Of a stretch of DNA of 64,000 nucleotides, positions 1,007 to 16,000 are shown piece by piece. Within the stretch, counting starts at the first letter, position 1; each line of letters opens with the position of its first letter. The stretch spans positions 2,656,001-2,720,000 of the forward strand of contig OZ257156.1 of the NCBI GenBank assembly GCA_965279375.1. The letters are read 5' to 3'. The notes below the pieces were generated by a model. It did no database searches and had not been told where the DNA came from. It worked only from the letters and a program-made list of their open reading frames with translations. A program made the translations under genes and the position numbers. The DNA comes from Gemmatimonas sp. (GTDB taxonomy: Bacteria; Gemmatimonadota; Gemmatimonadetes; Gemmatimonadales; Gemmatimonadaceae).

Positions 1007-1080
1007 TGCGCGAGACAGGAGTCGAACCTGCGACCTACGCCTTCGGAGGGCGTCGCTCTATCCAGCTGAGCTACTCGCGC
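1007..1080 (-). tRNA. tRNA-Arg(CCG)
   Basis: Reverse complement GCGCGAGTAGCTCAGCTGGATAGAGC...CT-CCG-AA...GGTTCGACTCC...CTCGCGCA forms a cloverleaf. Confidence 0.95.
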
Positions 1081-1153: not shown

Positions 1154-1969
1154 CTAATCCGCAGACGACTCCAGCGGCAAGGAACCGAGCGCTGCTTCGG
1201 CGAGCGCGGCGCGGAACGCTTGTTCCACTGTGACGGACACCGTCCCGCCACGCAGCACCGTGATGCCGGAGCCCAGATAGCGTCGCAAGACCATCCCCAA
1301 TCCGTGGCCCGAGGGGAAGTCGAGCTGACCCGCCACCGAGTCGAGCGAGCGTCCGCGTTCGTCCAGCAGCCCGCCTGCCACGAGCAAGCGGCACCAGGTC
1401 AGGAAGACGCGCGGACGTGGAAGGCAGTGCTCGACCATCCGGTTCCGCAGTGTTCGCCGGGTCACCCCGAAGGTGGCCGCGACTTCATCGACGCTGAGCG
1501 ATTCGTGCGCGTGTTCGAGCGCAAACCGAAAAAGTGGGCGCACCGGATGCGCGATGAGTTCGCGCAAGCGATCGTCGAGTCGTCGCGCGGTGGAACGTTG
1601 TACAGCGGAGGCCAGCACGCGGGCCAAGACATGCTGCATGTCTTCGACGTCGCGCAGGATCAGCTCCGTGACGTCCGCCTGTGCGATATCGAGCAGGAGG
1701 CGTGACGGTGGCTGCCGCAGTTCGCACCACGCCACGATGGCGTGGGTCGGGGCCGCCGCGCGCAGCTGTCGAATGGTACGAAGCGACCCTTCCGTATCCG
1801 TCGCACCGATCGCCACCACCGTTGCATCGACTTCGCCGCGGAGCACGTGCACAATCGCCGGCGAGGCCTCCCGGAATTGCTGCACCTTCCCCTGTGCGCC
1901 GACGGCGGCCCGCAGACGAGCGGACAGCACAGGTGACTCCGGGATGCACGCGACAACGAAGCCGCTCAT
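1154..1969 (-). CDS. AraC-family transcriptional regulator with N-terminal receiver-like domain
   Basis: C-terminal double HTH (LSVDEVAATFGVTRRTLRNR; SLDSVAGQLDFPSGHGL); N-terminal alpha/beta REC-like pattern. Confidence 0.85.
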   Translation of the reverse strand: MSGFVVACIPESPVLSARLRAAVGAQGKVQQFREASPAIVHVLRGEVDATVVAIGATDTEGSLRTIRQLRAAAPTHAIVAWCELRQPPSRLLLDIAQADVTELILRDVEDMQHVLARVLASAVQRSTARRLDDRLRELIAHPVRPLFRFALEHAHESLSVDEVAATFGVTRRTLRNRMVEHCLPRPRVFLTWCRLLVAGGLLDERGRSLDSVAGQLDFPSGHGLGMVLRRYLGSGITVLRGGTVSVTVEQAFRAALAEAALGSLPLESSAD

Positions 1970-2102
1970 GTGCAGTTACGCAGCATGAACGGCCTCACGC
2001 CCGAGCTCGCTTCCCGTTTGGTGCGATTCTTTCCCAAGGCGAGATGTTGGCGTGTTGGGTTCGCTTGTAGCGATGAGCACCCTCTCACTGGAGCTCGTTG
2101 CT

Positions 2103-2300
2103 ATGCCTGCTCGTCGCTTGCTGGTCGCTGCCGTTCTGTCCGCTTCCACGATCCTCGCCGCCTGCGATGGCGGACCGACCGCGATCAACTCTGCGTCCAC
2201 AATGCAAGACGGCGTCGGCGCGCGAAAGGATCAGATTCCTTGGCACCTGAAGGGCTGCGATTCTACCTCGACAGACGGGTCAAGCGGCGGATGCCCGTAA
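2103..2300 (+). CDS. Small secreted lipoprotein/peptide precursor (65 aa)
   Basis: GGAG RBS at 2089-2092; MPARRLLVAAVLSASTILAAC is a signal peptide with a LAAC lipobox; 45-aa mature part contains KDQIPWH and two further Cys. Confidence 0.65.
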   Translation: MPARRLLVAAVLSASTILAACDGGPTAINSASTMQDGVGARKDQIPWHLKGCDSTSTDGSSGGCP

Positions 2301-3483
2301 TGAGCGCCTTGTCTCCGTACTGGGTTGAGTCGTCCGTCCAGGCGGACGGTGCGGGGACAGCGGGAGGTGTCGCCTTCTGCAGCGCATCCCGAAGTTCGTC
2401 GACCTTCATGGAAAGCTCGTGGAACGGACGCGATTCGATCAGCGCCTCGGTCCGGCGGAGGCGCTGCAGGGCGTTGGCCGTGTCGTGGAGCACATTCCAC
2501 GCGTCAGCGGCCGACAGGAAAAAGCTCGCCACCTCAAACGTGGTGTTGGCACGCGACGTCTCCTCGATAGCGGACGATTCGAGCGCCTCGACACGGGGCC
2601 GGTCGCCTAGCCGCGCGGCCGCGCGAACCGCGCCGCCGTACGCCGGAAGGCGCACACGAACGACCGACGTGACGGTCAGTACATGCAGAAAGCCGTTCAG
2701 CGCCGCGTCCGGGAAGCCGGCGGTGAGTGCCGTGAGTGCAAGATTGGAAAGCAACATTGCACGCTCGTCACTCCCCTCCGGCGACAGATCGTACGCTCGC
2801 CAGCCGTGCAGCAACGCATCGGCCAAACGCGTTTCGGAGATGGCGGCGTTCATCAAACCCTGATGCGCCGATCGCTCCGTTATGCCGCCAGGATGCGCGC
2901 GCTTCAACGCGCGCCCATACAGAAGCCGCTCGTCCGGTCGGTTGCCTCGCATGCGCGCCAGAGCGCCCAAGCCGAGCAGTCCTAACGATTCGAGGGGACC
3001 GTCCCGTTTACGTGATCCTTCGCGGACCACGCTCTCGTAGCAATCGCTTGCGGTGTGAAGGTCGCCGAGCTGGCGCGCGATGCGCCCCAGATGCGCCGTC
3101 GCCACCATGCGGGTGACGACATCGGTCCCCGCCGTGAGCCGACAGACTGCCGCAACGGTCGTGAAGGCCAGCTCGAAACATCCGGCTCGCTCCATCGCCT
3201 CTGCCTCCACGCGCAAGCGCTCCGCGGTGACGGCCATCGGATCGACCGGACCATCCTGCGCGTCGTGCACCAGTGTCGGGCGTACCGACAGCGGAGGGAG
3301 CAAGTTCGTCTCGACCGACGTCAAATAGCCGGCGCGGTGAACTGCCGGCATCGACGAAAGCCGTTCCGCCGCCTGCGCGACGGCCAGCCAGTGCCCCAGC
3401 AATGGCTGCTCTTCCCGGTCAACCGACGAAACGGCCGCCGCATCACGGGAAAACGCAGCCAGGGCAGGGAGCGGATTACGCAT
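2263..3483 (-). CDS. TPR-like alpha-helical repeat protein (406 aa)
   Basis: Repeated TPR-like helix pairs: HLGRIARQLGDLHTASDCY, GLGALARMRGNRPDERLLY, NLALTALTAGFPDAALNGF, SAADAWNVLHDTANALQRL; no signal peptide seen. Confidence 0.75.
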   Translation of the reverse strand: MRNPLPALAAFSRDAAAVSSVDREEQPLLGHWLAVAQAAERLSSMPAVHRAGYLTSVETNLLPPLSVRPTLVHDAQDGPVDPMAVTAERLRVEAEAMERAGCFELAFTTVAAVCRLTAGTDVVTRMVATAHLGRIARQLGDLHTASDCYESVVREGSRKRDGPLESLGLLGLGALARMRGNRPDERLLYGRALKRAHPGGITERSAHQGLMNAAISETRLADALLHGWRAYDLSPEGSDERAMLLSNLALTALTAGFPDAALNGFLHVLTVTSVVRVRLPAYGGAVRAAARLGDRPRVEALESSAIEETSRANTTFEVASFFLSAADAWNVLHDTANALQRLRRTEALIESRPFHELSMKVDELRDALQKATPPAVPAPSAWTDDSTQYGDKALITGIRRLTRLSR

Positions 3484-3585: not shown

Positions 3586-3618
3586 CACGCCATGGGAAAT
3601 CACCGCACGCCATGGGAA
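3586..3618. promoter_or_regulatory. 13-bp exact direct repeat CACGCCATGGGAA x2, 20-bp period; candidate regulator site
   Basis: Copies at 3586-3598 and 3606-3618 in a divergent intergenic region. Confidence 0.5.
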
Positions 3619-3736
3619 GCGATCGAGCTGCCTGCGCGCAGCCACCTCTCCAACCCTCGGACGCTTCCGGGGGGACGCTGCCCTTGCTACTCTTCCTCAG
3701 CGCGACCTTTCCTTGACCCTTCGCCAGGCCCGCCCG

Positions 3737-3919
3737 ATGCCATTCTTCAGTCACCCAGCCAACGCCGATTGGCTGCTCCCGCTGATCAAGATCCCGCTCG
3801 CGTTCATCTCCCTGATCTTCCAGGCGGTGTTCGCAGTGGGACCGTTCGGGCAGATCGCGTTCATCGCCATCGTGATTGCGCTGTTCACGCGCAACGTCAT
3901 GGGGCCGCATCGCGCCTGA
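3737..3919 (+). CDS. Small hydrophobic membrane protein (60 aa)
   Basis: MPFFSHPANADWLLPLIKIPLAFISLIFQAVFAVGPFGQIAFIAIVIALFTRNVMGPHRA; GC3-rich codons; followed by a hairpin. Confidence 0.6.
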   Translation: MPFFSHPANADWLLPLIKIPLAFISLIFQAVFAVGPFGQIAFIAIVIALFTRNVMGPHRA

Positions 3920-3945
3920 GTCCAGTCCGTTTCTTGGGCCAAGCC

Positions 3946-3979
3946 GACGCCCCGCCGCGCCTTGTCGCGGCGGGGCGTC
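3946..3979 (+). terminator. Stem-loop, probable terminator
   Basis: Perfect 14-bp stem GACGCCCCGCCGCG/CGCGGCGGGGCGTC followed by TTGCGTT. Confidence 0.55.
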
Positions 3980-4098
3980 TTGCGTTCGAGCCCCCCGCAA
4001 GCAATCCAAGTGGTCGAGGCGGTCGTAAGAGAGCACAGCTCACCACGGTTCCTCTCCCCCTACGCTCTGCCAGATCCATGCATGCTCTCGGTAACTCC

Positions 4099-7023
4099 AT
4101 GGCCACGCTCCCGTTCGCTCACACGGCGACGCGGGTGATCTCGGCGACTCGTCGCATCGGCGTGCTTCTCGCCTGCAGCTCCGCACTGATCGCCACGGGT
4201 GGGTACGCGCAGACGCCCGGCGCGCAGAGCGCCGCGCCCGTTGTCTCGTCGCGCAGCGCGCAACAGCTCGCGCAGCTGTCCGGTGTCGTCCGAGCGCAGA
4301 CTGGACGACCGCTATCCGACGTCTCCCTTCGCGTGCTTGCTGGAGCAGCGCCGGCGACAGCGCGAAGCGATAGCGCGGGGCGATTCTCCCTCGCGATTCC
4401 ATCGGGCATGCGGCTCCGTCTGGTCGCGTCACAGGTGGGCTTCTCCGCAGAAACGCTGGACGTGCCAGCGCTGGTCGCCGGTAGCCGCCGCGACGTCGCG
4501 CTGACGCTCGCGCCACTGGCCCAGCTCGTGGTGCAACAGGTCATCGCGCAGCGCGATCGGCCGCTCCTCAATACGAGCGACGCCGCGACCGGCGGCGCCG
4601 TGGAGCGCGCAGAGTTGCGCGCCTTGCCAACCGACGCCCGCGATCCCATCGCCCTGGCCTACACGATCCCCGGTGTCGCTCAGGCCCGCGCGTTCTTTGG
4701 TGATGCGCCGCGACTGAGCATCAACGGCACGAATGCGCTCTACACCCAGTACACGCTCGATGGCCTCGAGAACAACGAAGGCTTCCTCGGCGGACCGCGC
4801 GTCGAGTTTCCACTGGCCGCGCTGCATCGCCTTGAAGTGCAAGCCAATACCTACACGGCCGCATCCGGTCGCAGCCCGAGCGGCGTGGTGAACTACGAGT
4901 CGCGGACGGGCGGCGAACGATGGAGCGGCGAGGTCTTCAGCTATCAGCGTCCAGGTTTGCCGCTCGACGCGCGACCGTCGATCGAGCCAAGCGGCGCGGC
5001 CCGAGCCGACTTCCGAAAGGCGCAGGAGGGGTTCCGCCGAGCACAGTACGGCGGCGCCTTCGGCGGACCGCTGGTGGCCAATAGGACGTATGTGTTCAGC
5101 GCGCTCGAGTACACCAACGAGAACGAGGATCGCATCAGCTCGACGGCGCGCGCCACATTCCTCGGACGCGAATTGCGCGAAACGTACAAGGGCTTCGCTC
5201 GACTGGATCACGGCTGGAACGATCGGCAAACCACGACCGCGCGCTTCGCGCTCAGCCGTCAGGCCCGCGCCGGAGAGGGCAGCGGCATCGTCGCCCCCGA
5301 AGCGGACATCACCACGATTCGTTTCGGTACGCTGTCCGCCCTAACCCACCGCAGCAGCTGGAACGCGGGGCGAGCGAGCAACAGCGCGTCGATTCAGCTC
5401 TCCACGTACAAGTGGGACTTCCCGCCGACGCGCAGCAGCTTCAGCGTTCCGCAGGTCACCATTCTCGATCGCGACAGTCTGCCGATCGGCGTCGTGGGCT
5501 CGAGCAATTTCATTTTCGACGAATCCGAACTGCAGTTCCAGTTTCGCGATGTCGTCGAGCGTCAGCTTGGTTCGCGTCACACGATGAGCGCTGGCGTGGA
5601 CGTCGCCTCATCACGCTTCAAGCTGACAGGGTCGTCCACCAACCCGTCTGGTTCGTACGAGGTCATCAACACGGGCAACATCCCGTCGAGCAACGGCCGC
5701 TATCGATACGCGGACATCCCGGCCAACGTCGTCGTGCGCAGCTACACCATCGACGCGGCGCAGAAGCAGGTCGATCTTACGCAGGCGCTGTACGGCGCTT
5801 TCATCGAGGACCGCTGGCGGCCGACGGCATCGCTCACCGTGCGCGCGGGCCTGCGCTGGGACTACGACGACCTGACGCGCCGTGGGGGCAGCACGGCCGA
5901 CTGGAAGAATGTGCAGCCGCGACTCTCGTTCAACTGGCTGCAAAACTCCGGCACCGTCGTGCGAGGCGGCGCGGGGCTCTTCGCCGGCAAGTTGCCGTAC
6001 GCCGTGTATTCGGATGCGGTGCAGTTCGGACCGAACGGCAATCAGACGGTGACCTTCCGCGGCGCGCAGGCGCCGGCTTTCGGGCAGGGTCCGCGAGCGG
6101 CCGCGCTCGACCGCAGCACGCTTCCCGCGCGAGAAGTCCGGCAGCTCTTCTCGCTCGGCATTCGGCAGCCGCTCAGCCGACAGTTTACGCTCGGCTACCA
6201 ACGGCAGTTCGGGGACCGTATCTCGTTGAGCCTTGATGGAGTATGGGTGGATACGCGTCGTTTGCCGCGGTCGTGGGACCTGAACGCACAATCGCGCACG
6301 ATCGGCCTTGCCGATACGGTCGGGCTCTCGACCAGCATCGGAGATGCATCGCGACCCCTCAAGCCGGTCGTCGGTGGATATCGTCGCCTCACCACGACAG
6401 AATCTGGTGGGCGGAGCACCTATGGAGGCCTCTACACGGCCATGCGCTATCGTGCAGCCGACCAACTGTTGATCGACGCCAACTGGACGTGGTCGCACGC
6501 CATCTCCAACACCGAAGACATCAACTTCAACGCGTCGGTCGGCAACGACTTCAATCTGGATCGGGCGGATGCCAACAATGATCGGCGGCACAAGGCCACG
6601 CTGCGCACGACGTGGACAGGCGTGCGGCATCTGATGCTGAGCGGAATCGTCGACGCACAGACGGGTACCCCGATCAATCGGGTGGCGTACTTTCGCGATC
6701 TGACGGGCGCGGGTGGTGCCTATGGCGATGGATTCATCGGCAACTATCAGCGATTTGCAGGAGTGCCGCGCAACGGCGAGCGGTTGCCCGCGGCGCTGTT
6801 CCTCAGCGCGAGCGCGGCGTACGATTTCACCGTGGGACATTCGACGCTCACCGCACGGGCCGACGTCTTCAACTTGCTGAATCGCGTGAACGCTTCCGGG
6901 TTTGCCACTGGCGTAGGTGGTGGAGGATCGGCGACGCAGGTCGGTCGCCCGGGTGACCCCGTCAGCTACACGACGGCGGGCGCGCCGCGCCAGCTCCAGC
7001 TGTCCGTGGGCGCGCGCTTTTGA
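4099..7023 (+). CDS. TonB-dependent outer-membrane receptor (Oar-like, N-terminal carboxypeptidase-regulatory-like domain)
   Basis: Signal peptide; LSGVVRAQTGRPL...SDSAGRF domain; plug (YTLDGLENNE, GRSPSGVVN); C-terminal RADVFNLLN...PRQLQLSVGARF. Start uncertain (4078 or 4099). Confidence 0.9.
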   Translation: MATLPFAHTATRVISATRRIGVLLACSSALIATGGYAQTPGAQSAAPVVSSRSAQQLAQLSGVVRAQTGRPLSDVSLRVLAGAAPATARSDSAGRFSLAIPSGMRLRLVASQVGFSAETLDVPALVAGSRRDVALTLAPLAQLVVQQVIAQRDRPLLNTSDAATGGAVERAELRALPTDARDPIALAYTIPGVAQARAFFGDAPRLSINGTNALYTQYTLDGLENNEGFLGGPRVEFPLAALHRLEVQANTYTAASGRSPSGVVNYESRTGGERWSGEVFSYQRPGLPLDARPSIEPSGAARADFRKAQEGFRRAQYGGAFGGPLVANRTYVFSALEYTNENEDRISSTARATFLGRELRETYKGFARLDHGWNDRQTTTARFALSRQARAGEGSGIVAPEADITTIRFGTLSALTHRSSWNAGRASNSASIQLSTYKWDFPPTRSSFSVPQVTILDRDSLPIGVVGSSNFIFDESELQFQFRDVVERQLGSRHTMSAGVDVASSRFKLTGSSTNPSGSYEVINTGNIPSSNGRYRYADIPANVVVRSYTIDAAQKQVDLTQALYGAFIEDRWRPTASLTVRAGLRWDYDDLTRRGGSTADWKNVQPRLSFNWLQNSGTVVRGGAGLFAGKLPYAVYSDAVQFGPNGNQTVTFRGAQAPAFGQGPRAAALDRSTLPAREVRQLFSLGIRQPLSRQFTLGYQRQFGDRISLSLDGVWVDTRRLPRSWDLNAQSRTIGLADTVGLSTSIGDASRPLKPVVGGYRRLTTTESGGRSTYGGLYTAMRYRAADQLLIDANWTWSHAISNTEDINFNASVGNDFNLDRADANNDRRHKATLRTTWTGVRHLMLSGIVDAQTGTPINRVAYFRDLTGAGGAYGDGFIGNYQRFAGVPRNGERLPAALFLSASAAYDFTVGHSTLTARADVFNLLNRVNASGFATGVGGGGSATQVGRPGDPVSYTTAGAPRQLQLSVGARF

Positions 7024-8285
7024 TGTACGCGGCGTCGCGCGCGGCGCTGAGACGGGCTGTTGTCGTCAGCACTCTAGTGTCGTCGACCCTCGGCATTGCA
7101 TGTGCGCGCCAACGTGATGCAACGCCGCGAGCAGACGCCGCGGCCACGAGTCAGCTGCCCTGGGACAGCGTGGTGGCGCAAGCGCGCGGCACGACGGTAC
7201 TCTGGCGAATGTGGCGTGGCGATCCGGCGATCAACGCATACGTAGACGGCTGGATCGCGCCGCGAGTTCGCGAGCGCTACGGAATCACGCTCCAGGCCGT
7301 AGAGGGGCAGGGCGCCGAGTTGGTGAACGCATTGGTGACCGAGCGTGAGGCCGGCAGAGGTGCGGGTAGTGCGAGCCTCGTGTGGATCAACGGCGAGACC
7401 TTTACGCAGTTGCGGCGTGAGCGGCTCCTCAGCGGACCCTGGTCTGGCCGGCTCCCCAATGCGCGCTACGTCGACAGTGCGTCCGCGATCATCTCGCGAG
7501 ACTTCGAGCGCGATCCGGCGGGTTTCGAGTCGCCGTGGGGAACGGTGCAGTTTGCGCTCATCTACGACAGTGCGCGAACGCCTAGTCCGCCGCACACCGT
7601 CGACGAACTCGCCGCGTGGATTCACGCGCATCCCGGACGCTTCACGCATGACCAATCGTTCGCTGGCGTCACGTTCCTCAAGACGCTGATGTATGCGCGT
7701 GCCGGTGGAGTGGCGCGTTTTCAGGGAGGCTTCGTCGACTCGACGTACGCCGTGGGACGCGACAGCGTCGTCGCTTGGCTGACGAGATTGCGCCCGGACT
7801 TCTGGCGTCGTGGCGAGACGTACCCGCCCGACGTGGCCGCGCTGCATCGCCTCTTCGCGAACGGTGAAGTCGACATGAGCATGTCGATGAATCAGAACGA
7901 GGTGCTGACGAAAGTGCGCCAGGGTGTACTGCCGAAATCATCGCGTGCCTTCGTGCTGCGTGACGGAACGATCGCCAACGCACACTTCGTCGGCATTCCG
8001 TTCAACGCGCCCAACGCAGCGGGAGCGCTCGTGGTCGCCGACTTCCTGCTCTCGCCGGAGGCGCAACTGGAGAAGCAGAAGGCGGAAGTGTGGGCTGATG
8101 GAACGGTACTCGACCTCGTGCGCCTGCCCTCGGAGTGGCGCGCGAAGTTCATTGCGCTCGAACAGGACGCGCATGCGATTTCCACCGACTCGCTGCGTCG
8201 ATATGCGCGACCCGAAGTCTCGGCGGAGTATCACGAGCGCTTGCAGGCTGACTGGCGTACGCTGGTGCGTCGCGGCGCGCCGTGA
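7023..8285 (+). CDS. ABC transporter substrate-binding lipoprotein, YnjB-like
   Basis: Lipobox GIAC; MWRGDPAINAYVD, LVWINGETF, ESPWGTVQF, GTIANAHFVGIPFNA, FLLSPEAQ motifs; TGATG coupling to the receptor gene. Confidence 0.85.
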   Translation: MYAASRAALRRAVVVSTLVSSTLGIACARQRDATPRADAAATSQLPWDSVVAQARGTTVLWRMWRGDPAINAYVDGWIAPRVRERYGITLQAVEGQGAELVNALVTEREAGRGAGSASLVWINGETFTQLRRERLLSGPWSGRLPNARYVDSASAIISRDFERDPAGFESPWGTVQFALIYDSARTPSPPHTVDELAAWIHAHPGRFTHDQSFAGVTFLKTLMYARAGGVARFQGGFVDSTYAVGRDSVVAWLTRLRPDFWRRGETYPPDVAALHRLFANGEVDMSMSMNQNEVLTKVRQGVLPKSSRAFVLRDGTIANAHFVGIPFNAPNAAGALVVADFLLSPEAQLEKQKAEVWADGTVLDLVRLPSEWRAKFIALEQDAHAISTDSLRRYARPEVSAEYHERLQADWRTLVRRGAP

Positions 8286-9166
8286 AGTCGTCCGACAAAG
8301 CGGGCTACGTCGCCGTCGCCATGTTGGCTGCGCCGGTGATCGTCGGTGCGCTCTATTCCGTTGCAGCATCCCTCGGCCTCGTCGGCGCGGGCGCTGATGC
8401 CGCCGGCAGTGAGCGCATCGTGCGGTCGTTGGGCGCGCCCGAGACATGGCGTAGTCTCGCATGGACGCTCTACACGGCAGGAGCGGGTACAGCGCTGGCC
8501 GTTATCGGAGCGCTGATCGTGAGTGTAGCTGTACAGCACAGTCGACTCGGTCGCGCCTTGGCCGTGGTCCCGCTCGCCGTTCCGCACGTGGCGGCATCGC
8601 TAGCGGCGCTGCTGCTATTGGGGCAGAGCGGATATCTATCGCGGATTGCGTTCGCACTGGGGTGGATCACGCAACCCTCGGAGTTTCCGGCGATCGTCTA
8701 TGACAAGGCGGGCGTCGCGCTGACACTCGCCTTCGCCTGGAAGGAGTTTCCGTTCCTGCTGATGTCGGCGCTCGCCGTTCTTGCCACGCAAGGCACCGTT
8801 CTGCGCGAAGTCGCGCAGACGCTCGGTGCCAGCCGGTGGACCACTTATCGCCGCGTGACGTGGCCGTTGCTGTGGCGCGGCATCGCCCCCGCGGTAATCG
8901 CGGTCTTCGCATTTCTCGTTGGGCAGTACGAGATGCCGAGCATGCTCGCACCGAGCGATCCGCTTGCGTTCCCGTTGTTGATTTTCGAGCGCGCCAACGA
9001 TCCGTCGCTCGTGCGGCGTGGCGAGGCGCACGTGCTCGGACTCATAGCTCTTGCGTTGGCAGGGCTGTTGGTGCTGCTGCACGAGCGCTTCCGTGCCAAC
9101 GCCGTCGACGCGGCAGCAACAGAGGGCAGAGACGAGATGGCCCGAGCGGATCGCACACATGTCTGA
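8282..9166 (+). CDS. ABC transporter permease
   Basis: Multiple TM segments; EAA-like loop EVAQTLGASRWTTYRRVTWP. Confidence 0.88.
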   Translation: MKSSDKAGYVAVAMLAAPVIVGALYSVAASLGLVGAGADAAGSERIVRSLGAPETWRSLAWTLYTAGAGTALAVIGALIVSVAVQHSRLGRALAVVPLAVPHVAASLAALLLLGQSGYLSRIAFALGWITQPSEFPAIVYDKAGVALTLAFAWKEFPFLLMSALAVLATQGTVLREVAQTLGASRWTTYRRVTWPLLWRGIAPAVIAVFAFLVGQYEMPSMLAPSDPLAFPLLIFERANDPSLVRRGEAHVLGLIALALAGLLVLLHERFRANAVDAAATEGRDEMARADRTHV

Positions 9167-9974
9167 CGCGCGAGTACGTGCGCCCGCGCCAGATGCCGCG
9201 TTTCGCGCACTGCTGTTTCCGCTGCTCGCGCTGCTGTCAATTCTTCCAATCGGAACGCTGATCGTGACCGCGTTGCGGCCAGCATCGCTCTATCCGGCGC
9301 TGTGGCTTCAGGATGGTTGGTCCATCACGGACTCGATGCAGGTGCTCGCGTCGCCAGCGGTCTGGGGTGCACTCGGCCGCAGTCTGATACTGGCCGTGCT
9401 CACCGGAGTCTTCGGCTGCGTGATCGCCTTCTTCGCGGCGCGCACGTTGGCGCGAGCGACGCGCACCGTGCAGCGCGTGGGAGCGGCGCTGGCGTTCCTG
9501 CCCGTGATTGCCCCGCCGATTGCGTTGGGCGTTGGTGTCCAGGTGTTCGCACTGCGACTGGGCGTTGGCGGATCGATGATTGGCGTGCTCCTGGCACATC
9601 TCATTCCGGCGTGCGGCTACCTCACGCTATTCCTGCTCGGCGTGCTACGTTCGTATGATGACGCGATGGAGGAAGGCGCGCAGACGCTCGGTGCCACCGC
9701 GTATCAGGTCTTCGTGCGTGTGACATTACCTTCGCTGCGTCCTCAGCTGATGGCTGCCGTGGTCCTGGGCGCACTGGTGTCGTGGGGACAGTTGGCGCTC
9801 ACGCTGCTGGTGGGCGCCGGCGTCGTGCGCACCTTGCCGGTAGAACTGCTGTCGTTTGTGAGAGCGGGCGATGATCGGTTAGGCGCGGCCGCGGCACTGT
9901 TGCTCTCGGTGCCGCCGTTGATTGCGCTCAGCGTCGTGCAGAGCGGTGTTCGTCGTACCGGAGCGGTGTCGTGA
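9159..9974 (+). CDS. ABC transporter permease
   Basis: TM segments; EEGAQTLGATAYQVFVRVTLP EAA motif. Confidence 0.88.
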   Translation: MSDARVRAPAPDAAFRALLFPLLALLSILPIGTLIVTALRPASLYPALWLQDGWSITDSMQVLASPAVWGALGRSLILAVLTGVFGCVIAFFAARTLARATRTVQRVGAALAFLPVIAPPIALGVGVQVFALRLGVGGSMIGVLLAHLIPACGYLTLFLLGVLRSYDDAMEEGAQTLGATAYQVFVRVTLPSLRPQLMAAVVLGALVSWGQLALTLLVGAGVVRTLPVELLSFVRAGDDRLGAAAALLLSVPPLIALSVVQSGVRRTGAVS

Positions 9975-11101
9975 GCACGCTTCCAGCGCGAGATGCGGCG
10001 CTGTCGCTCGAGGATGCGTCGATCCGTTTCGGTGCGCGGATTGGGCTGCATGCACTTTCGTTGTCGATCGCAGCGGGCGAGCGCGTCGCGTTGGTTGGCC
10101 CGTCCGGCGTCGGCAAGACGTCACTGCTGCGGGCGATCGCTGGGCTCGAGCAGAGCGCCGCAGGGCGCATCCGGGTAGCAGGGATTGACGTCAGTGATCT
10201 GGCGCCCGACCGTCGCGGCGTGGTGTATCTGCATCAGTCGCCTACGTTGTTTCCGCACCTGTCCGTGGTGGACAATGTGGGGTTCCCATTCGAGGTGCGC
10301 GGGAAGTCGCGTGCCGACGCGAGGGCGATTGCGCTCCCGCTGCTTGCGCGCGTGCAGATGGAGTCGTTCGCATCGCGCGCGCCGTCAACGTTGAGTGGCG
10401 GACAACGACATCGAGTGGCGCTGGCTCGTGCGCTGGCCGCAGAACCTGCCGTCTTGCTCCTCGACGAGCCGTTCGCGGCACTCGACCCTGCGCTGCGCGA
10501 CGAAGTTCGTTCGTCGGTGCTCGCATCTCTCGACGCCGTGCGTTCCGGCGCGGAAGACACGCGCGCGCCTGCAGTTCTGTTGGTGACGCATGACATCGAT
10601 GAAGCGGCGACGGTGGCCGATCGCATCGTCGTGTTGCTGGATGGTCGGATCGCGCAGGACGACGCACCCGGTGTGTTGTTGTCTGCGCCGAATTCGATCG
10701 CTGTCGCGCGGTTTCTTGGCCTGCCGAACATCGTGCGCGGGTCGTGTTCGCGGGGCGTGTTCACGAGCACCGTAGGTACTTACAGGTGCGAGCTCGGCGA
10801 TGGTCCCGCGCGGCTGGTGTCGCGTGCCGATGGATTCGTCGCGCGCGCGCGCGGCGCGACGCAGACGACTGACGTTTCGCCAGAGACGACAGGATCTGGC
10901 GTCAGCATCGGAAGCGTGGCTGGCGTTGTCGAGGCGGTGGAGGAGCGCCTGGCGGGTGTCGTCGTGCGCGTCCGCGTCGCGGACACGCACGTGCTCGCTC
11001 GACCGCTTTCGACGTCAGCTGTTTCTATTGGGGATTGGGTTGATCTGACGCTGGACGTGTCGCGCGTACATCTGATTCGCGAGACCGACGCCGATGTTTG
11101 A
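9971..11101 (+). CDS. ABC transporter ATP-binding protein
   Basis: Walker A GPSGVGKT, signature LSGGQ, Walker B LLLDEP, H-loop VTHD. Confidence 0.93.
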   Translation: MSTLPARDAALSLEDASIRFGARIGLHALSLSIAAGERVALVGPSGVGKTSLLRAIAGLEQSAAGRIRVAGIDVSDLAPDRRGVVYLHQSPTLFPHLSVVDNVGFPFEVRGKSRADARAIALPLLARVQMESFASRAPSTLSGGQRHRVALARALAAEPAVLLLDEPFAALDPALRDEVRSSVLASLDAVRSGAEDTRAPAVLLVTHDIDEAATVADRIVVLLDGRIAQDDAPGVLLSAPNSIAVARFLGLPNIVRGSCSRGVFTSTVGTYRCELGDGPARLVSRADGFVARARGATQTTDVSPETTGSGVSIGSVAGVVEAVEERLAGVVVRVRVADTHVLARPLSTSAVSIGDWVDLTLDVSRVHLIRETDADV

Positions 11102-11699
11102 TCACCTGCTTCGGGCACTCAAGGATCGATGGTTTGCACCACTGGCGCGCGCGCTGGGTCCCGCGCTGTCGCCCGCGATGATCTCGGTGCTGGCGCTCGC
11201 CTTCGGCCTGCTCGCGGCGCTGGCGGCGTATCGCGGACAGAACGGAGCCGCGTTGGGCGCATGGATTGCCAACCGGTTGTTCGACGGACTCGACGGGACG
11301 TACGCGCGGGTGCACGCGCGTCAGACCGACTTTGGCGGCTATCTGGACATCCTGCTCGACTTCGTCGTGTACGCGACAATTCCCGTTGCGCTGGTCGCAC
11401 GCGATCCGGCAGGGTTGTCGCTGGCGGGCGTATTTCTCGAGGCGACGTTTTTCGTGAATGCGGCCTCGTGGATGTATCTGTCGGCGATTCTCGAGGGGCG
11501 AAGCCGTGGGGCGGCGTCGCGCGGCGAGCTGACGTCGGTGACGATGCCGGCCGGGATCGTGGCGGGCACGGAGACGGTGCTGTTCTACGCGCTGTTCCTG
11601 ATCGTGCCTGCGTGGCGCGCGCCGCTGTTCTGGCTGATGGGCGGGCTGGTGTGCGTGAACGTGGTGCAGCGGTTGTGGTGGGCGCGGCGCGAGTTGTAG
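11094..11699 (+). CDS. CDP-alcohol phosphatidyltransferase family protein (YnjF-like)
   Basis: Signature DGLDGTYARVHARQTDFGGYLDILLD. Confidence 0.9.
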   Translation: MFDHLLRALKDRWFAPLARALGPALSPAMISVLALAFGLLAALAAYRGQNGAALGAWIANRLFDGLDGTYARVHARQTDFGGYLDILLDFVVYATIPVALVARDPAGLSLAGVFLEATFFVNAASWMYLSAILEGRSRGAASRGELTSVTMPAGIVAGTETVLFYALFLIVPAWRAPLFWLMGGLVCVNVVQRLWWARREL

Positions 11700-14667: not shown

Positions 14668-15177
14668 ATGAATGACCGTCGCGATCAGCGCAAGCGCAGC
14701 GGGCGAGCGAAGCTCGAGACGTCCGCCGGGGGCGTGGTGTATCGCGTGCACGAGGGCGAGCCGCTGTTTCTGCTCATTCGCGACAGCTACCGTAACTGGG
14801 GATTCCCCAAGGGACATCTCGAGGAAGATGAGATGCCCGATGCGGCTGCGCTGCGCGAAGTCCGCGAGGAGACCGGTCTCGAAGCACTCGATCTCGATGG
14901 GGCAATCGAGACGATCGACTGGTTCTTCCGCTTTCGCGGGAAACTGGTGCACAAGGTCTGTCATTTCTACCTGATGCACACCGATAGCGCGCGTACGATT
15001 CCGCAACGCGAGGAAGGCATCACCGCCTGTCGCTGGGCGCCGTACGATGAAGCCGTGCGACTGGTCTCCTATGCGAACGCGCGCGACGTGCTCGCGCGTG
15101 CGCACGCGATGGTGCAGGCGCCGACCGATCCCGCGCCAGAGGCATCCAGCCGTCCCGCGGACTCTCCGGAAGGCTGA
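14668..15177 (+). CDS. NUDIX hydrolase
   Basis: Nudix box GHLEEDEMPDAAALREVREETGL. Confidence 0.9.
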   Translation: MNDRRDQRKRSGRAKLETSAGGVVYRVHEGEPLFLLIRDSYRNWGFPKGHLEEDEMPDAAALREVREETGLEALDLDGAIETIDWFFRFRGKLVHKVCHFYLMHTDSARTIPQREEGITACRWAPYDEAVRLVSYANARDVLARAHAMVQAPTDPAPEASSRPADSPEG

Positions 15178-15178
15178 G

Positions 15179-16000
15179 ATGGCCACGGCTGCGCGCGTCG
15201 GAAGTTCGGACGGCTCCTCGCCGCCCATTCTGGTTTTGGCGCTGCTTAAGCGCGAGCGTGCGCGCGCGTTGGTGCGCGCGGCCTTTCCGCGCCGACGTGC
15301 GCATGTCGTGATGGTGAAGTCGGTCGCAGAGGTCGAAGCTCGCCTGACCACGCAGTTGGTGGATGCCGTCATCGTCGACGGCGGCGCCGGCGATGAAGCG
15401 ATTCGCGTCATTGCACGCGCCGAGGATTTTCAGAGCGTGCCGTTCGTCGTGGTGACGGCGATGCTGCCGGCTGATGCGCCGATGGTCGCGCGCGCGGCGG
15501 AGTCTGGCGTCGCGGAGTTGCTGGTCGAGGGCGTGGATGATGTGGCGGCACGTGAACTGGTGTTGCGTCTCGCCTTCTCGACGCGTTTCGAGCGTGCCCT
15601 CACGACGCCGCCGGAGGCGCTCCACCTCGACACACCGTTGCAGGTGGCCGTCTGGCACAGCGTCATCCGACGCGCCGGCCGCCCGATCCGAACCGACCAG
15701 CTGGCGAAAGAGCTCGGTGTGTCGCGCGAGCACCTGTCGCGCAGTTTTGCCACCGGGCGAGCTCCGACGCTCAAGCGCGTCATCGACCTGGTGCGTGTGC
15801 TGGCCGCCGCCGAGCTGGCGAAAAACGCCGGTTACGACGTGCGCGATGTGGCTGAGGTGCTTGGGTTTGCGTCGTCGAGCCACCTTTCCAGCACGACGCA
15901 GCGTCTGGTGGGGGCCAAGGCGAGCTCGCTCACGCGTCTCCGCGCCGTGGACCTGATCGAGCGCTTCCAGCAGCACTCTTCAGACAGTCTTGCCCCCTGA
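15179..16000 (+). CDS. AraC-family regulator with receiver-like N-terminus
   Basis: [36 protein letters not shown]. Confidence 0.85.

Follow-up and report, generated by a model that had tools for sequence, protein, structure and literature searches.

A 64,000-nt stretch of the genome of Gemmatimonas sp. (GCA_965279375.1, contig OZ257156.1, 2,656,001-2,720,000, forward strand; hereafter the window) carries a three-gene cassette that encodes a tetratricopeptide repeat (TPR) protein, a small prolipoprotein and an AraC-type regulator, and in which the genes for the TPR protein and the prolipoprotein are each preceded by a copy of the same direct-repeat box. The layout of this cassette is conserved across the Gemmatimonadota, its small open reading frame (ORF) carries a lipobox and the marks of selection, and its two larger products have recognizable folds. 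Together with the shared box, these features are probably explained by a regulatory loop similar to Rap-Phr/ComA, in which a tail peptide that is exported, clipped and re-imported would free the AraC activator from the TPR protein. The elements of the cassette are as follows:

1154-1969, minus strand: gene for the AraC-type regulator, 271 amino acids (aa)
2007-2045, plus strand: direct-repeat box with a TT[GT]CCCA[CT]-like core and a period of 20 bp, 57 nt before the peptide start
2090-2093, plus strand: ribosome-binding site GGAG, read from the sequence and the intergenic alignment and kept across the clade
2103-2300, plus strand: small lipobox ORF (prolipoprotein), 65 aa
2263-3483, minus strand: TPR gene, 406 aa
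3584-3622, minus strand: second copy of the box, 100 nt before the TPR start and pointing toward the TPR gene

The AraC gene and the small ORF diverge from a gap of 133 bp (1970-2102), the GGAG lies 9 nt upstream of the small-ORF ATG, and the small ORF and the TPR gene are convergent with an overlap of 38 nt. A preliminary description of this DNA had already reported the three ORFs and their places, the ribosome-binding site, the lipobox LAAC, the motif KDQIPWH, the 133-bp gap and the convergent TPR gene, all of which agree with the present analysis; it had missed both copies of the direct-repeat box.

Conservation of the cassette in Gemmatimonadota

The single TPR protein, used as query, found a match in 25 of 61 related genomes, and a 25-row TPR profile matched in 139 of 301 Gemmatimonadota genomes (E <= 1e-10). 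From these searches 157 loci were gathered (30 with the single query, 30 with the profile, 80 hand-picked from the profile list, which do not cover all of its places, and 17 from metagenomes), 142 of which are non-redundant and 134 evaluable, the remaining 8 having been left out for a cut TPR gene or less than 450 nt of downstream sequence. A fixed rule for a small lipobox ORF beside the TPR gene fires at 126 of the 134 evaluable loci and at 37 of 3,911 long frames of the window's own genome, so that chance adjacency can be rejected. The ORF is convergent with the TPR end in 120 of these cases and lies divergently upstream in 6, and three further peptides spotted by eye raise the number of loci with a peptide to 129. 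An AraC homologue occurs within 600 nt in 126/134 loci, and all three genes are found in the layout of the window in 113/134, counts that measure conservation and not independent origins because the loci are kin. The preliminary description had named missing synteny, an unconserved small ORF and TPR homologues without small secreted neighbours as outcomes that would speak against it, and none of these was observed. Its expectation of lipobox ORFs beside TPR homologues was likewise borne out, but the PW motif that it hoped to find in them is limited to one clade.

Named homologues belong to Gemmatimonas and other Gemmatimonadota and, like the Atlas clusters, all fall into this phylum except for one weaker set led by Bacteroidota. 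Two complete cassettes, both with tails of the PW type, are present in a cultured strain, Gemmatirosa kalamazoonensis KBS708. Matches on plasmids were confined to two Gemmatirosa megaplasmids, and no relative was found on viral contigs with a query from the close clade. Transport as cargo of a mobile element is unsupported, the PW-clade cassette holding a single chromosomal place at tRNA-Arg/rho, which it adjoins in the neighbour clusters of 24-26 PW loci.

Two variations on the common layout were seen. In the loci with the divergent peptide (L021, L025, L027, L028, L030 and L048 in our numbering) the TPR and AraC genes are adjacent, and the upstream peptide is longer (72-86 aa), with a Cys-loop and a W-containing motif at its end. 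In seven others (L054, L118, L131, L133, L137, L213 and L224) the locus DNA holds a TPR-peptide pair with no adjacent AraC gene; two of these, L213 and L224, nevertheless keep the box, which suggests control in trans.

The small prolipoprotein and its clade-specific tails

The small ORF of the window consists of a signal peptide with the LAAC lipobox at residues 18-21 (Cys21), a variable linker, a conserved tail that runs to IPWH (2226-2246; KDQIPWH at residues 42-48) and a further 17 aa that include two paired Cys residues (C52, C64). Cassette peptides measure 39-88 aa with a median of 47 (126 loci). By pattern they have the features of Sec export of the signal peptidase II (SPII) type, namely a basic N-region, a hydrophobic core (Kyte-Doolittle value, KD, > 2.0 in 120/129 peptides) and the lipobox. 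In a 29-row alignment of the PW clade R5, C21, T26 and W47 are invariant and P46 is near-invariant, the linker is variable and of low complexity, and the end of the tail is conserved. In 23 of these rows the protein ends at a PW[GHN]-type stop and in 6 it runs on; the window copy, which continues for 17 residues past PWH, would therefore need C-terminal trimming or act as a loop. A ribosome-arrest leader peptide was considered for the PW-stop ending and dropped because the next gene is convergent.

Substitution rates indicate that the small ORF is under purifying selection (dN/dS 0.25 in 11 hand-chosen close pairs; 0.19-0.30 by part, with 0.19 for the signal region and 0.23 for the tail), and a spurious ORF was rejected on this ground. 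The tails differ by clade (PW[GH], CDxxNxNxC, QGSNN, [FY]VNP and GSGT-like), and their classes track the TPR tree, requiring 20 changes vs 75 after shuffling (FastTree). Tandem units of 6-9 residues, 2-6 per peptide, occur in 9 of the 129 peptides (L060, L064, L066, L067, L073, L074, L085, L129 and L136), one of which has the PW unit three times, and the unit length suggests the size of the mature signal. After the lipobox Cys, exactly two further Cys are present in 80 tails, none in 49 and one or three in 0; this two-or-none pattern points to a disulfide and, through it, to export. The motif C-x(1-6)-T[GAE]P follows the lipidated Cys in 71/126 cassette peptides and in 15/173 long lipobox ORFs of the window's own genome and is possibly a lipoprotein sorting signal of Gemmatimonadota.

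The TPR protein

The TPR protein matches Pfam TPR_12 with an E value of 7e-6, which lies under the curated cut-off, and its AlphaFold2 (AF2) model is all-helical (predicted local-distance difference test, pLDDT, 92). It comprises three N-terminal helices (7-60), an extended linker (61-81), a TPR superhelix of about seven helix pairs (82-369) and a C-terminal helix (388-405). No helix-turn-helix (HTH) was found in the protein and a hydrophobic N-terminal segment is present in 0/134 family members, in line with the preliminary description of an all-TPR-like protein without signal peptide or HTH; the protein is accordingly predicted to be cytoplasmic.

A fold search with the model returned LGN (Z 23.2), Pins (22.8), OGT (20.0), RapI (19.8), MalT domain III (19.4), RapH (18.7) and NprR (18.3) at 9-17% identity, and AimR at Z 15.1, with 9-10% identity for Rap and NprR and the RapI match extending over 300 aligned residues with a root-mean-square deviation (rmsd) of 5.2 and 10% identity. 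Foldseek also gives a generic TPR match. The resemblance to Rap, NprR and AimR for which the preliminary description had proposed a fold search is thus present, but LGN, Pins and OGT score higher. Sequence homology to Rap was not detected, and profile searches of proteins and families listed no RRNPP entry.

Conserved polar residues comprise R137 (97/98), N181 and N/D247. In RapF, N227 is a strictly conserved groove Asn that holds the peptide backbone. Residue 247 is Asn in the window and in 80 of 125 close relatives, and phylum-wide it is Asp in 63 and Asn in 21 of 98.

The AraC-type regulator carries a likely pseudo-receiver

In its AF2 model (pLDDT 93) the regulator combines an N-terminal receiver fold with a C-terminal AraC double HTH. 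The receiver is five-stranded and matches known receivers at Z 13-17, best 2qxy (Z 16.8, rmsd 2.1, 116 aligned), which is also found by sequence, as is AdpA (E 2e-16). The HTH matches Pfam HTH_18 with E 1.3e-7, and this family was matched in 120/120 members of the regulator family (E <= 0.001).

The preliminary description had drawn attention to an Ala where the phosphoacceptor Asp is expected. This residue, Ala53, does end strand beta3, the expected phospho-Asp place, but the substitution is local, since 78 of the 120 members keep Asp at this site, whereas 20 have Glu and 9 have Ala. The beta1 acidic pair and the beta5 Lys are found in 0/120, so that the whole family looks like pseudo-receivers. 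With the catalytic residues missing and all 67 HATPase_c matches of the genome lying outside the window, which agrees with the earlier remark that no kinase gene lies there, a classical two-component regulator was rejected. Measured against YesN-like regulators that join a receiver to an AraC domain, the protein has the receiver fold and lacks the phospho-Asp, the acidic pair and the beta5 Lys; the cassette is not a canonical response-regulator system.

Three more full-length receiver-fold AraC members are encoded in the same genome (E 2e-58 to 2e-30), one in the window at 15047-16000 (+), directly preceding the ATP synthase alpha gene, and two on contig C1 near 2746800-2747700 and 1202750-1204170. 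Despite these extra members the TPR profile has only one strong match in this genome.

A direct-repeat box shared by the peptide and TPR genes

A scan of the 5.3-Mb genome with a matrix that leaves out the window's own site gave two strong sites only, the TPR-side copy at 36.7 bits (top) and the peptide-side copy at 32.7, followed by a next site at 17.5. A repeat of the scan with 74 sites agrees, the next site reaching 18.9 bits and the maximum on the reversed genome 15.

The box recurs in other cassettes. The AraC-peptide intergenic region contains the repeat at period 20 in 28/34 regions of the PW class, and at period 21 in 27/28 of the CD..N..C class, 19/23 of the GSx class and 12/17 others, where shuffles at lag 21 give a mean of 1.3-2.5; neither the 20-bp nor the 21-bp repeat was seen in the three regions of the VNP class. 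On the TPR side, the box precedes the TPR gene or operon in 9/27 clade loci within 260 nt and in 22/26 PW-clade loci within 700 nt, with 0 on the reverse strand, the count rising with distance because a small gene often intervenes. The exact box pattern occurs in 31 of 81 genomes of the genus, often as inward-pointing pairs on the cassette, and in 0/81 of the reversed controls. From clade to clade the sequence of the box changes along with that of the AraC HTH, and we infer that the AraC protein of the cassette binds the box, which is its likely operator.

In other genomes, extra boxes stand before lipoproteins (one with a weak peptidase M15 match), paralogous regulators, a subtilase, a TonB-dependent receptor, a gene with a Tle1-like phospholipase domain and a LuxR response regulator; several further boxes have no clearly readable gene after them.

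Between box and TPR gene, many PW loci (L005, L007, L009, L010, L012, L015-L018, L035, L037, L150 and L151) have a helical ORF of ~80-115 aa that is absent from the window. The copy in L009 has no Pfam match. This ORF is a possible fourth component of the cassette.

Comparison with known systems

The closest likeness is to Rap-Phr/ComA. RapF is described as a three-helix bundle, a linker and seven TPRs (PMC3601957), and PhrF frees ComA from RapF (PMC3601957; PMC3246441). The cassette likewise encodes an HTH-less TPR protein of ~400 aa that has three helices and then a linker at its N-terminus and, next to it, a small propeptide of the Sec type, in which a short stretch at the C-terminus is conserved and at times repeated in tandem; a receiver-containing transcription factor is the likely partner. 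The RapH alignment covers residues 25-356 of the TPR model. Tandem pheromone copies are known from RRNPPA propeptides (PMC11343458), among which 211 of 2,734 are of the SPII type (PMC9765709). In contrast to Rap-Phr, the host phylum has two membranes, a lipobox is present in nearly every cassette propeptide and a Cys pair in many of the tails, and the partner is a dedicated, co-encoded pseudo-receiver AraC protein and not a kinase-driven response regulator.

PlcR-PapR, NprR-NprX, AimR-AimP and Rgg-SHP share with the cassette a TPR receptor beside a propeptide and likely autoregulation through an operator. RRNPP receptors that are transcription factors carry their own HTH (PMC9765709), whereas DNA binding in the cassette sits in the separate AraC protein. 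The double HTH and the two direct repeats upstream recall XylS/AraC, XylS recognizing the Pm promoter via tandem direct repeats upstream of the regulated gene (PMC5481539), but the N-terminal domain of the cassette regulator has a receiver fold without phosphorylation site in place of a small-molecule pocket, and its input is likely a protein partner. LGN/Pins, OGT and MalT domain III are the best structural matches of the TPR protein (Z 19-23), with OGT and LGN also the best profile matches; their biology is unrelated, and all that can be learned from them is that such a fold is able to accommodate extended peptides.

Set beside the five-point RRNPP signature as outlined in PMC10075063, which includes a propeptide of 10-100 aa, the cassette has a propeptide of 65 aa with Sec export by pattern, a predicted cytoplasmic TPR receptor of 406 aa (range 250-500 aa) and a receptor-propeptide overlap of 38 nt (range -60 to 400 bp). 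Since LGN, OGT and MalT match the TPR fold no less than Rap does, it is fair to call the cassette analogous to RRNPP systems, but membership does not follow. It would work like Rap-Phr, yet we do not file it as an RRNPP member. The proposal of the preliminary description, an RRNPP-like system in a diderm, is partly supported by the conserved cassette, the shared box and the repeated tails, while its central steps, namely peptide release and import, peptide-TPR binding and TPR-AraC contact, are predictions.

Proposed mechanism and alternative explanations

In the loop that we regard as probable, the AraC protein would bind the box and activate the peptide and TPR promoters, giving positive feedback via the peptide and negative feedback via the TPR protein. 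In the absence of peptide, the TPR protein would contact the AraC protein directly and so prevent it from binding DNA, in the manner of RapF and ComA. After export and lipidation, signal peptidase II would process the prolipoprotein, and a protease would then free a peptide of 6-8 residues, here around DQIPWH, a size taken from the repeat units of relatives. An oligopeptide transporter would re-import the tail, which would bind the TPR groove and release the AraC activator, comparable to the action of PhrF on RapF-ComA. Outputs would be mainly exported proteins and further regulators. The sign of TPR control over the AraC protein is the least certain step. Candidates for import and processing are encoded in the genome, which has four SBP_bac_5 genes (Opp/Dpp-type binding proteins), one POT and one OPT gene, and LspA.

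Several points weigh against this loop. Binding, processing, import and expression are all predictions, and the peptide transporters are common and unlinked to the cassette. Gemmatimonadota are a two-membraned phylum, and the lipid anchor, the two membranes and the disulfide loop complicate re-import. The TPR fold is generic, with LGN, Pins and OGT ranking over Rap, and among PDB sequences the profile search listed OGT and LGN as best matches and no RRNPP protein. The best conserved inner position of the TPR protein, residue 247, is mostly Asp and not Asn. The partial correlation of tail and TPR distances given the AraC protein is 0.20, with 0.22 for the signal peptide, so covariation is inseparable from co-inheritance. 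No peptide was found in the locus DNA examined at 5 of the 134 loci, and for the CD..N..C clade a search within 450 nt did not reveal the box on the TPR side (1/26 over shuffles). Finally, in the window's own genome a strong box occurs only before cassette genes, with no outside target found, and therefore no output is identified.

Two other explanations, both unlikely, assign the prolipoprotein a different role. It may serve as an export monitor within one cell, the full precursor binding the cytoplasmic TPR protein only when lipoprotein export or maturation stalls, so that the circuit would report on envelope biogenesis, with no signal between cells. Such a monitor avoids the problem of re-import, a tail left inside in reduced form would be distinct from an exported one closed by a disulfide, and several of the extra boxes precede exported lipoproteins; however, it hardly explains why the tails are clade-specific, have diverged strongly and occur as tandem repeats, or why one genome has several cassettes whose tails differ, and no export-machinery gene was seen behind the extra boxes of the loci examined. 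Similarly doubtful is a lipoprotein that is itself the output of the AraC protein, a small lipopeptide at the surface that acts as a kin label or an envelope factor, while the TPR protein senses another ligand. The box before the small ORF shows regulation only, other lipoproteins lie behind boxes too, and the motif after the lipidated Cys is shared with ordinary lipoproteins of the genome. An output would hardly account for a small ORF that stays beside the TPR gene in two layouts and even where the AraC gene is absent, nor for the restriction of the conserved part to a few terminal residues past a low-complexity linker.

Less probable again is a co-activator, in which the peptide-bound TPR protein docks on the pseudo-receiver and turns the AraC protein on. 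What is described of Rap favours inhibition (PMC3246441), but the genomic evidence is the same as for release from inhibition, and a box before both the TPR and the peptide gene fits a pure positive loop. It is very improbable that the active peptide is the cleaved signal sequence and the tail incidental, as in the enterococci, whose pheromones derive from lipoprotein signal peptides: selection on the signal region is as strong as on the tail, the signal region tracks TPR distances equally well and no outer membrane would have to be crossed, but signal regions are alike across clades while tails differ and repeat, and the invariant W47 and the near-invariant P46 sit in the tail.

Genomic neighbourhood

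Past the AraC gene of the window lie a tRNA gene, which forms part of the context of the cassette, and rho:

1007-1080, minus strand: tRNA-Arg(CCG)

Scans for sigma-70 promoters and terminators gave no signal exceeding shuffles. Divergent from the TPR gene, a hydrophobic ORF of 60 aa (3737-3919, plus strand) has no Pfam or NCBIfam match; it shows 71-91% identity in L002, L003 and L018 and is not kept in most loci. Judging from the translations, the region 3592-11699 (+) presumably contains a gene resembling TonB-dependent receptors, after which come an ABC transporter set and a gene resembling CDP-alcohol phosphatidyltransferases; an outer-membrane barrel of similar kind adjoins the cassette in locus L141 and is not general among cassettes. 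In 37 loci outside the PW clade the cassette is flanked by a cluster of receiver-domain ORFs (L089:3998-4429 and related), often with an adjacent MerR-type HTH gene, some members being more than a receiver.

Implications

Literature searches, whose coverage is incomplete, showed no description of the cassette, the preliminary description likewise knowing of none, and no candidate communication system of Gemmatimonadota. Signalling by imported peptides via cytoplasmic TPR receptors has been described for Gram-positive Bacillota (PMC10075063, PMC9765709). Tentatively, and without calling it probable, we propose that the Gemmatimonadota may possess a phylum-wide peptide quorum-sensing family of their own, with RRNPP logic, which would be the first peptide system with an intracellular receptor in a two-membraned phylum and would have evolved independently of Rap-Phr. 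In this family a lipid-anchored and often disulfide-looped propeptide would give rise to clade-specific signals that cross both membranes and act on a TPR anti-activator, and thereby on a kinase-free pseudo-receiver AraC protein that would control its own cassette and exported proteins via a defined operator.

The loop would raise the questions of how the tail of a lipoprotein is released and recrosses both membranes, and of what controls a pseudo-receiver if not phosphorylation. The proposal is directly testable, as it names a candidate for each of peptide, receptor, activator and operator, and KBS708 is a cultured strain with two cassettes. If it is true, signalling of this kind would extend to two-membraned bacteria and to about half of the sampled genomes of a phylum that is abundant in soil and freshwater, and the Gemmatimonadota would gain a candidate communication system.

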